From contig JALGZK010000001.1 in NCBI GenBank assembly GCA_025774935.1, positions 66,331 to 130,330 of the forward strand: DNA of 64,000 nucleotides. The letters are read 5' to 3'. The notes under the pieces are model-generated. The model did no database searches. It had not been told where the DNA came from and saw only the letters and a list, made by a program, of their open reading frames with translations. Every line of letters starts with the position of its first letter. The first letter of the stretch is position 1. Source of the stretch: a bacterium. GTDB taxonomy: Bacteria; Joyebacterota; Joyebacteria; Joyebacterales; Joyebacteraceae. Both the position numbers and the translations under genes were made by a program. Positions 2,772 to 31,903 of this stretch are shown here, piece after piece.

Positions 2772-3064
2772 CGTCCTACACCGCATGTCGTCCGAGCTGA
2801 CGGGCGCTGCACTTGACCGCTCGCGAACCAGCAGCTGGGCGGGCTGCCCCTCCGGTCCGTGACATTGGCCTGCCCCTTCGATCGGTGTTCTTCCTTCTCT
2901 TCGGTGCGATCCACTCCGTGTTCTTCCCACTCAGCTACCCGTACGCCCCGCCCCCCCGTCTCTTCCGTCGACTTCCGCCCTCAAGTATGATAGCTACTGA
3001 GTGGCGGCCTGATTCCGGCCGTCGGTCGGGATGTGGAATCCAATCCACCAATACGGGGAACTGC

Positions 3065-13558: not shown

Positions 13559-14143
13559 TTGTTCAGAGATCTGCGCATCGAGACCGAGCGGCTCGTCCTG
13601 CGGCCTTTCGTACCGGAGGATCTTGACGACCTTCACGCGATGCTCTCGGACCCGAAGGTCGTGGAGCATCTTCCGAACGACGTGATGACGCGCGAGGAGA
13701 CCAGGGATGCGCTCGCTCGGATCGGCGGTTCCTACGAATTCGCGTCCGTGGAGGAGATGAAGCGCTGCTCGCTGGCGGTCGAGGACCTGGAGACCGCGCG
13801 TGTCGTGGGGTGGTGCGGGGTCGGACGTCTGAACATCGATCCAGGCGAGTTCGAGATCTACTACGGTCTATCGAGCGACCACTGGGGGAGAGGCTTAGCG
13901 TCGGAGGCGGCCGCGGCACTCGTCGACCACTCGTTCCACGCCCTCGGTCTCGAGCGGATCGTCGGCATCGTCTACCCGGAGAACGCCGCGTCGCGTCGGG
14001 TCCTCGAGAAGATCGGACTGACCTACCGGTGGCAGATCACCGGTCTCCCGGAGGAGCACGCGGCGTTCGAGGGAGTGCTCTACTTCGACATGACCCGCAC
14101 CGAGCACGAGTCTCGGGACGGGCGGACTCGAGCGGCGACGTAG
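13559..14143 (+). CDS. GNAT N-acetyltransferase (RimJ/RimL-like)
   Basis: IETERLVLRPF; HWGRGLASEA; ENAASRRVLEKIG. Confidence 0.9.
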   Translation: MFRDLRIETERLVLRPFVPEDLDDLHAMLSDPKVVEHLPNDVMTREETRDALARIGGSYEFASVEEMKRCSLAVEDLETARVVGWCGVGRLNIDPGEFEIYYGLSSDHWGRGLASEAAAALVDHSFHALGLERIVGIVYPENAASRRVLEKIGLTYRWQITGLPEEHAAFEGVLYFDMTRTEHESRDGRTRAAT

Positions 14144-14207
14144 TTGGCTCTGCTAACCTGTTGACCTGTTGCGCGTTAGGGCGCCGTCCGTCAGACGAGA
14201 AGCGGGG

Positions 14208-14236
14208 TTGACAAACCCGATGCCATCGATTAAACC
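14208..14236 (+). promoter_or_regulatory. Sigma70-type promoter of the arsR-like gene
   Basis: TTGACA 14208-14213, 17-nt spacer, TAAACC 14231-14236. Confidence 0.65.
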
Positions 14237-14260
14237 TAGACGCATAGAGATGGGTCTATG
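14235..14260. promoter_or_regulatory. Putative ArsR operator, site 1
   Basis: CCTAGAC-N12-GTCTATG overlapping the -10/+1 region. Confidence 0.6.
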
Positions 14261-14287
14261 TAGATGTGAGCACAAGGGGGCGCGAGC

Positions 14288-14620
14288 ATGGACGACAAGT
14301 GCAGCGAGATGTTCCACGCGCTGGCGGACAAGACGAGGCTCAGGATCCTCGAGCTCCTCAAGAAGGAAGAGGAGCTCTGCGTGACGGACATCGCGAAGCA
14401 CTTCGAGATGAAGCAGCCGTCGATCTCGCACCACCTGGACGTGATGAAGAGGGCGGGGCTCGTGACGAGCGACAAGCGGGGACGGGAGGTGTACTACCGG
14501 TTCAACCCTGACGCGATCCTGGACTGCTGCGGGAATCAGCTGAGGGTGCTCGACATCGATATCGTCTCGGTTGGGAAGGACGGGTTCAAGGTGACGAGCA
14601 GGGGCAAGAAGAAGGGGTAG
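14288..14620 (+). CDS. ArsR/SmtB family metalloregulator
   Basis: FHALADKTRLRILELL, ELCVTDI, SISHHL, KRGREVYY; C-terminal DCCG. Confidence 0.92.
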   Translation: MDDKCSEMFHALADKTRLRILELLKKEEELCVTDIAKHFEMKQPSISHHLDVMKRAGLVTSDKRGREVYYRFNPDAILDCCGNQLRVLDIDIVSVGKDGFKVTSRGKKKG

Positions 14621-14640
14621 GCGGGCGAGCCCCCTTTTTT
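14609..14640 (+). terminator. Possible intrinsic terminator after the arsR-like gene
   Basis: AAGAAGGGG...CCCC followed by TTTTTT. Confidence 0.4.
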
Positions 14641-14649
14641 CGATTGGGC

Positions 14650-14675
14650 CATAGACATCGCCCTATACGTCTATG
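14650..14675. promoter_or_regulatory. Putative ArsR operator, site 2
   Basis: Perfect inverted repeat CATAGAC-N12-GTCTATG abutting the RBS of the next gene. Confidence 0.6.
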
Positions 14676-14691
14676 AAAGGAGGTGGAGGAG

Positions 14692-14880
14692 ATGGCGGAG
14701 GAGAAGAAGGGCCAGAGCAGCTGCTGCATCATCGTCTGCTGCGGTTCGGACGAGGACGCCAAGGGCGTGAAGATCGTCTGCTGCGATCCTGACGGCGCGA
14801 AGGAGATGATGAAGAAGTTCGAGAACTGCTGCGCGCCCGCGGATGACTGCTGCGAGCCGAAGGACGACTCGAACGAGTAG
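14692..14880 (+). CDS. Small Cys-rich protein with five CC pairs (metallothionein-like candidate)
   Basis: Strong RBS; MAEEKKGQSSCCIIVCCGSDEDAKGVKIVCCDPDGAKEMMKKFENCCAPADDCCEPKDDSNE. Confidence 0.8.
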   Translation: MAEEKKGQSSCCIIVCCGSDEDAKGVKIVCCDPDGAKEMMKKFENCCAPADDCCEPKDDSNE

Positions 14881-14990
14881 GTCCGGCAGCGGCTGACGCC
14901 GTGTCGCCCGCCGGTACCGAACCGACGGGCGGCGCGGCCCGGGCTCCGACACGAGGCAGACGGGAGCCCGCTGAGGAGAGGGAACGAGCC

Positions 14991-16463
14991 ATGAGACCGC
15001 GCGCTTCAGAACAGGCCGAGCGATACTCGAGGGCCGCGAGCCTTACCGTCCTCGAGATCGACGTGGACTGCGATGTGCTCCTCCCGGCGTATCTCATCGC
15101 GAACATGATGTCACCGGCGCTCTGGGCGTGGAGGGACGAACGTAGAGCGCACGCGCGTGACGGCGCGCCGCTCGGAGTGCGGAGACGTCTCAAGGGGCTC
15201 GAACGGCAGTTCCACCGGTACACGTTCACGAACATACCGGGCGAACCGGGCGGCGATCCTTGGGGGCTTCTGTACTTCCCGGAAGAGGAACGCAGGCTTG
15301 GCGAGGGCTTCGTCCGAGGCGTGCGGGCCGACTACGACGCCGCACTGCGGGCGGTCCTCGCGCAGAGCCCGGACAGCCAGTTCGGGAACATCGTGAATCA
15401 GGACTACTACAGGGCGGGTTACTTCCCGCGGCTGAGGAACGAGCTCATTGAGACGATGGACGCCTACGCGGGGGTCTCGCACGACGGGAAGGCCTCGGGG
15501 AAGTGCGTCGCGCTGGCGCTCCTGTGGGCGGCAGCCCTCATCGTGTGGGGGCGGTTCTCGCCCGGTGACGTGATCCTGATCGGCAACCGTTCCCATCTCT
15601 TCGTGTATCTCGATCAGGAAGAAGGCCACCTCTTCAACAACACGAGGTGGTTCAGCCGCACGCGCATCCACAACTCCTCCGAGGTCTCCGAACTCGTGAG
15701 GATGGTGACCACGGGATCCGAGACGACGTTCCTCTACAACCCGTGGCAGGGGATGTGCCACTGCACCGACGGGAGGTCGACGATTGCGGAGGAGCGGCTC
15801 GACGACCTCTGCGGGAAGGTGCAGGGCTTTCTCGCGAGTCCTCTCAAGCAGCCCGACGCCTCCGAGCTCAGGTTCGCCGGCGAGGAGGAGCCCCTCCTGG
15901 ACCCCAGGTCGTTCGCATGCGCGGACGATTTCCAGTCGGCGGTCTGGATCCTCGCCGACCGTCGCCCGGGATCCGCCTACGACTTCGCGCAGTACGCGTT
16001 CCGCAGGATCGACGTGCCACGACCGGACGCGTACGTCCTGGCGGCGCTGCGCGACTATCACACGAAGAGGGCGGCGGCTTCCGTCGCGACCCTGGAGGAC
16101 GCAGTGTCGATCGTGAAGAGTGTCCGCGGGCGACGGTCGGTCTTCGGGAGCCGAGGGAGGGTAGCTCTTCCTGACGAGACGCTCTACTTCGATACCGGCG
16201 ACGACCGCGATCGCGCGCTCCTTCTTTTCACGCTGCTCGCGCAGTCGAGGCTGGCGGACCCCACTTCTGTCATCGGGTTCTCCGAGCACAACAGCTATGT
16301 CCGCCACGATGGGAGGTGGATCGAGTGCAGAACGCTGTCGCATGCGAGCTCCGCCCCGCGGAGGCTCACGCACCTCTTCAATGGCTCTGGGAGCTCCCGT
16401 CGCCCGTACGTGCGCGTGGCGCCGGAGTCGGCTTCGGGTCTTCCGGCGGCGGCGGCCCCCTGA
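14991..16463 (+). CDS. Hypothetical protein with two transglutaminase-like segments
   Basis: GKCVALALLW...SHLF...LFNN and GDDRDRALLLFTLL. Confidence 0.6.
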   Translation: MRPRASEQAERYSRAASLTVLEIDVDCDVLLPAYLIANMMSPALWAWRDERRAHARDGAPLGVRRRLKGLERQFHRYTFTNIPGEPGGDPWGLLYFPEEERRLGEGFVRGVRADYDAALRAVLAQSPDSQFGNIVNQDYYRAGYFPRLRNELIETMDAYAGVSHDGKASGKCVALALLWAAALIVWGRFSPGDVILIGNRSHLFVYLDQEEGHLFNNTRWFSRTRIHNSSEVSELVRMVTTGSETTFLYNPWQGMCHCTDGRSTIAEERLDDLCGKVQGFLASPLKQPDASELRFAGEEEPLLDPRSFACADDFQSAVWILADRRPGSAYDFAQYAFRRIDVPRPDAYVLAALRDYHTKRAAASVATLEDAVSIVKSVRGRRSVFGSRGRVALPDETLYFDTGDDRDRALLLFTLLAQSRLADPTSVIGFSEHNSYVRHDGRWIECRTLSHASSAPRRLTHLFNGSGSSRRPYVRVAPESASGLPAAAAP

Positions 16464-16809: not shown

Positions 16810-17094
16810 GTGACCGAGAGAAAGGCCGTCCGACACGGCGAGTGGATCAAGCTGGGAACGGAGACGGCGGTCGACGCCGTCGTCTGCGATGTCTACGAGT
16901 CGACCCGGAGCAACGGGGCGGACGCGGCGGTCGTGTACCGCGATGCCGAAGGCCGCGCCGTCTACGAGGAGGTCAGGTGGGACGGCTCGCGCTGGGACTT
17001 CCTGTACTCGGGCCCCTGTGGGCTTCACGCCAGGTGCGTCTCGTGCGCCGAGAAATACCTCGAAGTGCTGGAGCGGGGACGGACAGACGCGTGA
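16810..17094 (+). CDS. Hypothetical protein
   Basis: GGAGG RBS; GC-ending codons; fills a + strand gap. Confidence 0.6.
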   Translation: MTERKAVRHGEWIKLGTETAVDAVVCDVYESTRSNGADAAVVYRDAEGRAVYEEVRWDGSRWDFLYSGPCGLHARCVSCAEKYLEVLERGRTDA

Positions 17095-30458: not shown

Positions 30459-31484
30459 ATGGAGAGCGGAACGGCGAGAGAGGTGATGGGCGAGGCGACG
30501 AAGCCCGTCGTCCGGCACGCGACCTCCACGATGACCGCCGCGGACTGGTGGGACCACCTCCTTGCGCGGTGGTCGATCGACCGACAGGGACACCGGGTGG
30601 AGCCGGGACTCTACGCCCTCGGGACCCCGGACAGGGCGGCCCCCGTCTTCGTCACCGCGAACTACACGCTGAGCTTCGACGCTCTCAGGACGGCGGTCGG
30701 GGACATCGACTGCTACATCGTCGTCCTCGACACGCTCGGGGTCAACGTCTGGTGCGCGGCCGGGAAGGGGACGTTCGGGACCGACGAGCTCGTCCGCAGG
30801 GTCGAGGCGACCGGACTCGCCGACGTGGTGGACCACAGGCGACTCATCGTGCCACAGCTCGGCGCGACCGGGGTCGCAGCACACGAGGTCACGAGGAGGA
30901 CAGGCTTCCGCGTGGAGTACGGACCCGTGCGCGCCGCGGACATCCCGGAGTACCTGGAGCTCGGCGAGGCGACGGCGGCGATGCGGCGGATGACCTTCCC
31001 GCTCAAGGACCGCCTGGTGCTCATCCCCGTGGACCTCGTGAAGGCGCTTCCGTTCGGGCTCGGGGCGGCGATCCTGCTCTACTTCCTCGGGGGCCCCCTT
31101 CTCGCCTGGGCTGCCCTCACGGCGGTTCTGGCGGGAGCCGTCCTCTTCCCGATCCTCCTCCCGTGGCTCCCGACCCCCAATTTCAGCACGAAGGGGCTCA
31201 TTCTCGGGGTCGTCGCGGCGGTGCCGTTTCTGGTAGGCTGGTTGGGTGGGCGGCAGGAACTCGGGCCGTGGTTCCTCTACGGGGGTGCCCTTGCGCTCCT
31301 GCTCACGATGCCCCCGGTGACCGCCTACATAGCCCTGAACTTCACCGGCTCGACGACGTACACCTCGAAGACCGGCGTCGAGAGGGAGATACGGAGGTAC
31401 ATCCCCGCCATGGTCTGGACGTTCGGGGCGGGCCTCGTGCTCGCGATCGTCCTCGCCGTGGCGGCGAAGGTCGGAGGGCGATGA
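30459..31484 (+). CDS. hgcA: Mercury methylation corrinoid protein HgcA
   Basis: Cap-helix motif GVNVWCAAGKGTFGT; VTANY; PQLGATGV; C-terminal TM domain ending NFTGSTTYTS. Confidence 0.95.
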   Translation: MESGTAREVMGEATKPVVRHATSTMTAADWWDHLLARWSIDRQGHRVEPGLYALGTPDRAAPVFVTANYTLSFDALRTAVGDIDCYIVVLDTLGVNVWCAAGKGTFGTDELVRRVEATGLADVVDHRRLIVPQLGATGVAAHEVTRRTGFRVEYGPVRAADIPEYLELGEATAAMRRMTFPLKDRLVLIPVDLVKALPFGLGAAILLYFLGGPLLAWAALTAVLAGAVLFPILLPWLPTPNFSTKGLILGVVAAVPFLVGWLGGRQELGPWFLYGGALALLLTMPPVTAYIALNFTGSTTYTSKTGVEREIRRYIPAMVWTFGAGLVLAIVLAVAAKVGGR

Positions 31485-31903
31485 TGTACGACGCCTACGC
31501 GACGAATACACTCGAATACGACCCGACGCTCTGCGCCGGCTGCTGGACGTGCATGGCCGTCTGTCCGCACGAGGTCTTCGCGCGGGAGAACGGCGTCGTC
31601 CGGGTCGCCCACGCGCCTTCGTGCATGGAGTGCGGCGCGTGCCAGCTGAACTGCCCGACCGGGGCGCTCAAGGTAGACAGCGGGGTGGGCTGCGCGTACG
31701 CCATCATCTGGTCCGCTCTCACCGGGCGGGATGACCTGAGCTGCTGCGGGGACAGGGCGCCCAGCTCGCGCGGAGGAGACGCAGAGGCCGCTCAGGAGCA
31801 GTCCCGGCCCGCAGGGTGCTGCGGAGAGCCGGTGCAGGAGAGCGCGGCTTCGTCCCCGGAGGGGGCGAAGCCGGGCGACGATGGCGACTGCTGCTGCGGG
31901 TGA
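31481..31903 (+). CDS. hgcB: Mercury methylation ferredoxin HgcB with extended Cys-rich tail
   Basis: ATGA overlap with hgcA; CAGCWTCMAVCPH, CMECGACQLNCP, SGVGCA; tail CCG...CCG...CCCG. Confidence 0.93.
   Translation: MMYDAYATNTLEYDPTLCAGCWTCMAVCPHEVFARENGVVRVAHAPSCMECGACQLNCPTGALKVDSGVGCAYAIIWSALTGRDDLSCCGDRAPSSRGGDAEAAQEQSRPAGCCGEPVQESAASSPEGAKPGDDGDCCCG

Follow-up and report, generated by a model that had tools for sequence, protein, structure and literature searches.

A 62-residue protein of vicinal cysteine pairs encoded next to an ArsR-type repressor: a candidate metalloid-binding unit with counterparts in several phyla

The 64,000-nt stretch of DNA analysed here (the window) carries a Cys-pair protein gene on its forward strand at positions 14692–14880 (ATG at 14692, TAG at 14878–14880, 62 codons), and the translated product, P0001, reads MAEEKKGQSSCCIIVCCGSDEDAKGVKIVCCDPDGAKEMMKKFENCCAPADDCCEPKDDSNE. 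All ten cysteines of P0001 fall into five vicinal CC pairs (contexts SSCC, IVCC, IVCC, ENCC and DDCC), with a CC-x4-C spacing towards the N-terminus (C11, C12, C17) and a CC-x5-CC spacing towards the C-terminus (C46–47, C53–54). The protein contains 8 Asp, 7 Glu and 8 Lys, lacks His and Arg altogether, and has a net charge of approximately -7. The original prediction, a candidate metallothionein-like protein, was accurate in its description of this product, both as a 62-aa chain with five CC pairs and no His, and as an acidic and Lys-rich protein (15 acidic residues vs 8 Lys). The strong ribosome binding site that it noted is a perfect Shine-Dalgarno (SD) site, AAGGAGGTG, at 14677–14685 of the forward strand, with 8 nt between GGAGG and the ATG. 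Cysteine makes up 16% of P0001 vs 1.4% in the gene set of the window, a crude reference of 18,315 aa that holds 5 CC dipeptides in total. The GC3 of the frame is 0.94, as in the adjoining genes (the window has a G+C content of 66.8%), and the gene is present as a single copy in the 3.24-Mb genome, which is 96% complete. In two congeneric genomes the frame is open as well, and the 7 and 7 codons that differ are changed synonymously only. Comparison with Pfam returned 0 families at E<=1, the bacterial metallothionein model included, and no NCBIfam family matched P0001 either; membership in a known non-metal family, which the original prediction had raised against itself, was thus not encountered in these two collections. 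A 247-nt contig from an RNA library spans 14602–14848 with 0 differences, which is a weak hint that the gene is expressed, as such libraries may contain DNA. Taken together, the open reading frame is a real, conserved gene of an unnamed family.

Upstream of this gene and on the same strand lies arsR (14288–14620), encoding a 110-aa repressor of the ArsR/SmtB family that scores well above the cut-offs of both Pfam HTH_5 (64.7 bits, cut-off 22) and NCBIfam NF033788 (103.7 bits, cut-off 55). Its stop codon is 71 nt away from the start of the P0001 gene, and the placement of the latter directly downstream of an ArsR and an operator-like site (14650–14675) is as originally described. Cys5, Cys31 and the vicinal Cys80-Cys81 of this ArsR are invariant across 14 orthologues, most of which have CC at positions 5–6; among related regulators in general, Cys31 and Cys80-81 are kept in nearly all, and the N-terminal Cys in most. 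Published As(III)-sensing ArsRs, as outlined in PMC11868830, use three-Cys sites whose positions vary and in which a vicinal pair is frequent, and a two-Cys vicinal site is associated there with selectivity for methylarsenite. The same source describes three As(III) site types by the positions found in R773, AfArsR and CgArsR (PMC11868830), and, going by these descriptions, the Cys pattern of the window ArsR appears to equal none of the three exactly. Its Cys31 sits in ELCV and thereby supplies only the first Cys of the R773 motif. A predicted complex of the ArsR dimer with P0001 received a score of 0.01 (mark 0.32), which speaks neither for nor against binding.

The arsR-P0001 pair is bracketed and divided by a set of short signals. 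A promoter-like element of arsR, read by eye as TTGACA, 17 nt and TAAACC, occupies 14208–14236 (+), and the congeneric loci L002 and L003 have TTGACA followed after 17 nt by TACATT or TATGCT at the same place. Just 3' of the -10-like hexamer follows a first putative operator copy, TAGACGCATAGAGATGGGTCTATG, on the reverse strand (14237–14260), which forms an arm of the inverted repeat I1 and is kept in both congeners. The second copy, CATAGACATCGCCCTATACGTCTATG, lies on the forward strand at 14650–14675, is palindrome-like (CATAGAC-N12-GTCTATG) and is placed between the T-run that follows arsR and the SD of the P0001 gene, directly 5' of the latter. When the whole 3.24-Mb genome was searched for CATAGA-N4-14-TCTATG, two matches were obtained, at 14243–14260 and 14650–14675, i.e. 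the pair bracketing arsR, with 0.09 such pairs expected from the genome's own hexamer counts. A 23-nt pattern built on the cassettes of other phyla found the same two genomic sites only, in opposite orientation. The layout of promoter-like element, operators, T-run and SD is preserved in both congeneric genomes. A consensus promoter and terminator scanner returned 0 sites in 14100–15100. With respect to transcript ends, a hairpin with a T6 run at its end (14614–14640, +; fold -17.6 kcal/mol, z -2.4) covers the arsR stop codon; it is modest, in L002 and L003 it is weak or missing, and the conserved T-run after arsR may be either a terminator tail or a promoter element. The RNA-library contig starting at 14602 fits read-through from arsR, again with the proviso that DNA may occur in the library. 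Downstream of the P0001 gene, a GC-rich hairpin without a T-run (14898–14938, +; inverted repeat I3; -41.5 kcal/mol, z -2.3) is a possible transcript end. Judged by the operator sites, from which we infer control by ArsR, the P0001 gene appears to answer to a dedicated repressor by way of two operator copies that occur nowhere else in the genome.

The range of the gene within its own phylum is narrow. Searching 1.84 billion representative proteins with phmmer yielded three homologues of P0001 (E 3e-9 to 4e-6), a word-index homology search yielded no candidate, and relatives were found to occur in metagenome protein sets. Among the 31 species genomes of the phylum sample, all of one family, the P0001 gene is present in three, which represent the whole genus, and its ArsR (E<=1e-15) is found in the same three; at the thresholds used, no other of the 31 genomes has either gene, and the two travel together. 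An alignment of five close homologues shows invariant C17, G18, D20, K24, C31, D32, C47, D51, C53 and C54, with C11 or C12 present in every sequence, and the N-terminal CC-x4-C is not retained in all five. Because only about six Cys are conserved in this set, the five CC pairs of the original prediction hold for the window copy and are not a trait of the family. A metagenome contig that matched the genus-type alignment (A1) turned out to carry a UDP-glucose dehydrogenase-like gene with 16 shared residues, and was discarded as spurious.

Genes on either side of the pair were considered as further members of the unit. The GNAT acetyltransferase gene upstream of arsR (13559–14143, +) has a faint similarity to ArsN1, which confers arsinothricin resistance (23 bits, cut-off 170), is syntenic in the congener G002 only, and was rejected. 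Directly 3' of the P0001 gene, a 490-aa open reading frame (14991–16463, +) without a Pfam or NCBIfam family was rejected as a partner, as it is missing at the loci of G002 and G001, and it looks like an insertion; at the L002 locus, a homologue of the 94-aa gene at 16810–17094 stands in its place. The reading of P0001 as a RiPP precursor was also dismissed, as no maturase-like gene recurs next to the two genes.

A scan of species genomes with the ArsR alignment recovered 61 loci, and the closest ArsRs (56–70% identity) belong to Zixibacteria, Calditrichota, Armatimonadota, Eisenbacteria and unclassified MAGs. Cys-rich open reading frames of 49–66 aa lie directly 3' of these closest ArsRs in 13 loci read, a count that leaves aside L024, where the frame is cut by the contig end, L027, which is apparently frameshifted, and the two loci of the genus itself. 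At L027 (Zixibacteria; 2851–3048), each of two frames encodes half of the small protein, and at L109, in another genome, the frame is interrupted; these broken frames could be decay or assembly error. The general plan of this wider type comprises an N-terminal Cys cluster in most members, a strand-turn-strand followed by a helix, and a CC ... CC tail at the C-terminus. Of the 28 cassettes read, nearly all have a T-run past the arsR stop codon and most have AAAGGAGG(TG) ahead of the start codon; the operator pattern occurs in its strict form in 11 and in the loose form TAGA-N10-16-TCTA in 17. P0001 matches the 50–70-aa wider class (alignment A6, 23 sequences) in size, in slot, and in having the T-run, an ATAGA-type operator and AAAGGAGG. 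At two loci of Fidelibacterota/FCB-group MAGs (L038, L040), no Cys-pair protein follows arsR; approximately 180–210 nt past its stop codon, both have instead an SD and a 16-codon open reading frame with two Cys, identical in the two, preceded by a T-run and an ATAGAC-type AT-rich repeat.

As this first set had been found through ArsR, a second search was started from the small protein. Its profile (A3, 17 members) matched 22 places in 21 of the 285 genomes of the Zixibacteria-type phylum, and an ArsR homologue lies directly upstream, on the same strand, at 19 of them. The other three places, where the 1.5-kb flanks contain no ArsR, are a pair of longer proteins and a frame that is interrupted. 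The longer ones, open frames of 158 and 181 aa (L116 in G469:C10 and L112 in G468:C121), show, in the stretches read, a strand-strand-helix-like module more than once and an end rich in Cys, Gly and Lys. Genes flanking the cassettes are unrelated between loci, and we therefore take ArsR plus the Cys-pair gene as the unit. None of the 17 members gave a convincing Pfam or NCBIfam family, and no metallothionein model matched them; the A3 profile had 10 matches in a 5.8-billion set, all unnamed or 'hypothetical', a sequence profile search of the PDB returned matches at E>=0.5 only, to designed proteins, and the top scores in the ESM Atlas (0.79 and 0.77) were to unnamed clusters and under the lead threshold.

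Structure prediction and profile comparison bear on how the two types are related. For P0001 itself, AlphaFold gave a pLDDT of 48.7 and a helix at 33–44 alone, with no confident fold. For a Zixibacteria-type member it predicted strands at 21–28 and 31–38 and a helix at 41–55 (pLDDT 81–85), with Cys-rich ends of low confidence, and Foldseek placed no PDB entry at E<=0.001 beside this model (best 0.12). An hhalign comparison of A1 with A6 reached a probability of 53% (E 1.3e-4) over 37 columns, residues 21–57, and at E<=1 the A6 profile does not recover the P0001 frame from the genome that encodes it. Homology between the genus type and the wider type, of which we are moderately sure, thus appears weak by sequence, and in view of these two results the case for common descent rests largely on context, i.e. 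the orthologous regulator, operator layout, size and position that both types share. Alternatively, one may have taken the place of the other through non-homologous replacement by a similar Cys-rich peptide.

The window also encodes HgcAB, as had been stated, with hgcA at 30459–31484 (425 bits, cut-off 275) just upstream of hgcB at 31481–31903 (+; 101.1 bits, cut-off 99). HgcB is 140 aa long and is matched by its NCBIfam model to residue 90 only, and the 50-aa C-terminal extension beyond it contains vicinal-Cys clusters (CC, CC, CCC). The original prediction had offered HgcAB as context for the small protein, a suggestion for which we found no link: the two loci are 15.6 kb apart, the whole-genome pattern search placed no operator copy at HgcAB, and HgcA was present in 5 of the 21 genomes with an A3 match vs 44 of the 264 without one (285-genome phylum, kinship ignored).

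Several known systems resemble the unit in part. In SmtB-SmtA of cyanobacteria, an ArsR/SmtB repressor controls a metallothionein, and the circuit senses, derepresses and sequesters. The present pair is like it in joining an ArsR/SmtB repressor and an inverted-repeat operator to a small, Cys-rich, cytosolic protein, but its genes are arranged in tandem instead of divergently, and its ligand is likely a metalloid. BmtA/SmtA proteins are defined by His ligands, CxC spacing and a zinc-finger-like fold, whereas P0001 has no Pfam match, no His, and vicinal Cys in place of CxC. The claim that it belongs to a class different from SmtA/BmtA therefore held up, as P0001 has no match to a Pfam or NCBIfam model at E<=1, no His, and vicinal Cys throughout. 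MymT of mycobacteria, like other metallothioneins of its size class in bacteria, is small, Cys-rich and inducible, and its regulator is not known to be of the ArsR type; going by this general description, P0001 and MymT are alike in size and Cys content. Vicinal Cys also occur in the C-terminal tail of MerA, and the HgcB tail, which has three such clusters in this genome, is similarly flexible and built of CC pairs; those tails, however, are parts of ferredoxins or enzymes, whereas P0001 is free-standing, with a tiny core and Cys-rich ends. In cyanobacteria, AzuR-NmtA is a further case of an ArsR/SmtB repressor over a bacterial metallothionein, as sketched in PMC8790569. A closer likeness in spacing is found in ArsD of E. 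coli R773, whose Cys12, 13 and 18, Cys112-113 and Cys119-120, as numbered in the relevant part of PMC4562236, have the same N-terminal CC-x4-C and C-terminal CC-x5-CC spacings as P0001. The ArsD genes that we fetched end in CC-x4-6-CC tails, and ArsD, as P0001 appears to be, is under ArsR control. Unlike ArsD, with its thioredoxin-like body (~120 aa), P0001 is about half the size, lacks such a body and has no Pfam match, and hhalign of A1 and A3 against eight ArsD sequences (PF06953) gave probabilities of 9.8% and 5.9% over 16–17 tail columns only; on this sequence evidence, the resemblance is one of chemistry and not of family. P0001 can thus be described as combining an SmtB-SmtA-like logic with an ArsD-like cysteine chemistry, while belonging to neither family.

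The ligand with the best support is arsenic, because closely related ArsRs directly precede arsM, in one case beside acr3 and arsC. All four methyltransferases encoded directly 3' of related ArsRs exceed the NCBIfam cut-off for arsenite methyltransferase (294.7–363.5 bits vs 263), the ArsRs concerned show 48–66% identity, and the gene order at one of the four loci is acr3-arsC-arsR-arsM. When 27 ArsRs were placed in a maximum-likelihood tree, those linked to ArsM came out interleaved with those linked to CC proteins: L028 falls inside a 17-row clade with 95/95 support, in which 15 rows are CC-linked and the long branch L047 is unreliable, and L035 is sister to L037 with support 87/81. The association with these sister regulators points to arsenic as the probable inducer of the window ArsR. 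The ArsM proteins of L028, L034, L035 and L036 have N-terminal regions with vicinal CC pairs (e.g. CCGP), and ArsM fills the slot that is held elsewhere by the Cys-pair mini-proteins, with a similar vicinal-CC chemistry. Elsewhere in the genome, a separate ars cluster (L117, G000:C18:164000–172000, reverse strand, from profile matches) contains an ArsR paralogue, a 349-aa gene, a SaoE/SO_0444-like permease, an ArsF-family protein, an arsC-like gene (142.7 bits, under the cut-off of 174.3) and acr3 (372.9 bits, cut-off 282.8). Since this cluster has an ArsR of its own, the P0001 unit should be dispensable for basic resistance. ArsD was not found in the genome (96% complete), and neither was a real ArsA, the PF02374 matches being to the P-loop only (positions 3–44 of 305).

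Its apparent control by an ArsR of its own and the presence of similar units in several phyla make P0001 probably a small protein that soaks up a metal(loid), be it arsenic or another thiol-loving metal. From the gene as observed, its conservation, the operator pair, the linkage to arsR and the arsenic context of the sister regulators, we infer an inducer, metal binding, its stoichiometry and a hand-over as follows. The two genes would form a sensor-and-sink unit, in which an operator present in two copies is bound by the ArsR dimer, both over the start of the arsR transcript and just ahead of the P0001 ribosome binding site. A thiophilic metalloid, for which As(III) or a methylated trivalent arsenical is the most likely candidate, would bind at Cys5, Cys31 and Cys80-Cys81 and release ArsR from the DNA, whereupon the derepressed P0001 gene would be translated strongly from its perfect SD. 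The product, small and acidic, with a short predicted strand-strand-helix core and flexible Cys-rich ends, could then capture the metalloid through its CC-x4-C cluster and CC-x5-CC tail, acting as a cytosolic buffer and perhaps passing its cargo to the Acr3 pump encoded elsewhere, and its uptake of free inducer would also reset ArsR. To the reading of P0001 and its ArsR as a repressor-controlled, metalloid-binding sink or hand-over protein we give about an even chance.

The same circuit could serve a soft cation, i.e. Hg(II), Cd(II), Zn(II) or Cu(I), with P0001 as a metallothionein of a new class that possibly handles mercury in an HgcAB organism. The ArsR/SmtB family does include Zn, Cd and Pb sensors (the similarity of the window ArsR to CmtR is 36.9 bits, cut-off 150), HgcAB lies within the same window, and vicinal Cys recur in the three CC clusters of its HgcB extension; yet HgcAB is 15.6 kb off and lacks the operator, HgcA is distributed as 5 of 21 vs 44 of 264 genomes, sister ArsRs control arsM or have it beside acr3 and arsC, and P0001 has none of the His, CxC and CxxC typical of Zn/Cd metallothioneins, which leaves this option unlikely. 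Somewhat further down the scale, and in our estimate quite unlikely, P0001 would be mainly a regulatory partner, either an ArsD-like second-tier regulator or an inducer buffer acting on or with ArsR. A pair that has no other conserved neighbour would suit such a role, as would the CC-x5-CC spacing, which equals that of the ArsD pairs for which a regulatory function is proposed in the corresponding part of PMC4562236. Past the tail, however, no relation to ArsD in sequence or fold is seen (hhalign 9.8% and 5.9%), and the perfect SD suggests a high output, a property more in keeping with a stoichiometric binder than with a regulator.

Two other explanations depart from metal binding as a sink altogether. 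P0001 might be a thiol, redox or sulfur-stress protein (with sacrificial thiols, or as a persulfide carrier) or a small structural Fe-S or Zn protein, under an ArsR-family regulator that does not sense metals. Persulfide and sulfite sensors exist in the ArsR family, the window ArsR has a similarity to BigR of 35.6 bits (cut-off 155), and six conserved Cys could hold a cluster; the regulator clade is nevertheless interleaved with arsM-linked regulators, the cassettes are without sulfur-oxidation genes, and Cys positions vary widely in the family, a poor fit to a fixed cluster site, such that we would place only a small, roughly one-in-ten kind of trust in this account. That the frame is a chance product of GC-rich DNA with CTGCTGC runs, and untranslated, would agree with a very short gene whose support is at the DNA level, but is scarcely credible given its GC3 of 0.94, the conservation of frame, start, SD and operator in three genus genomes with synonymous changes, and the relatives in metagenome protein sets.

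Taking the sensor-and-sink reading one step further, P0001 may belong to a cross-phylum, undescribed group of ArsR-controlled 'arsenic metallothioneins', whose vicinal-cysteine ends bind trivalent, possibly methylated, arsenic, and whose sequestration can replace ArsM under the same type of repressor; we put this forward tentatively, as a proposal that is more likely wrong than right. Bacterial answers to arsenic comprise efflux, reduction, methylation and ArsD/ArsA hand-over, and to our knowledge they do not include a dedicated cytosolic mini-protein that binds arsenic under the control of a repressor; full-text searches of open-access papers and preprints returned no description of such a protein. 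If the proposal is true, it would add a sequestration arm to arsenic resistance, and would offer biosensing or bioremediation work a compact natural cassette that pairs a sensor with a binder and has a defined 24-bp operator. The two-gene unit is small enough for a direct test in E. coli, and small Cys-pair genes beside ArsR merit systematic annotation. The arsenic defence of uncultivated anaerobes would then have a common component that has been missed by annotation pipelines and by the literature alike.
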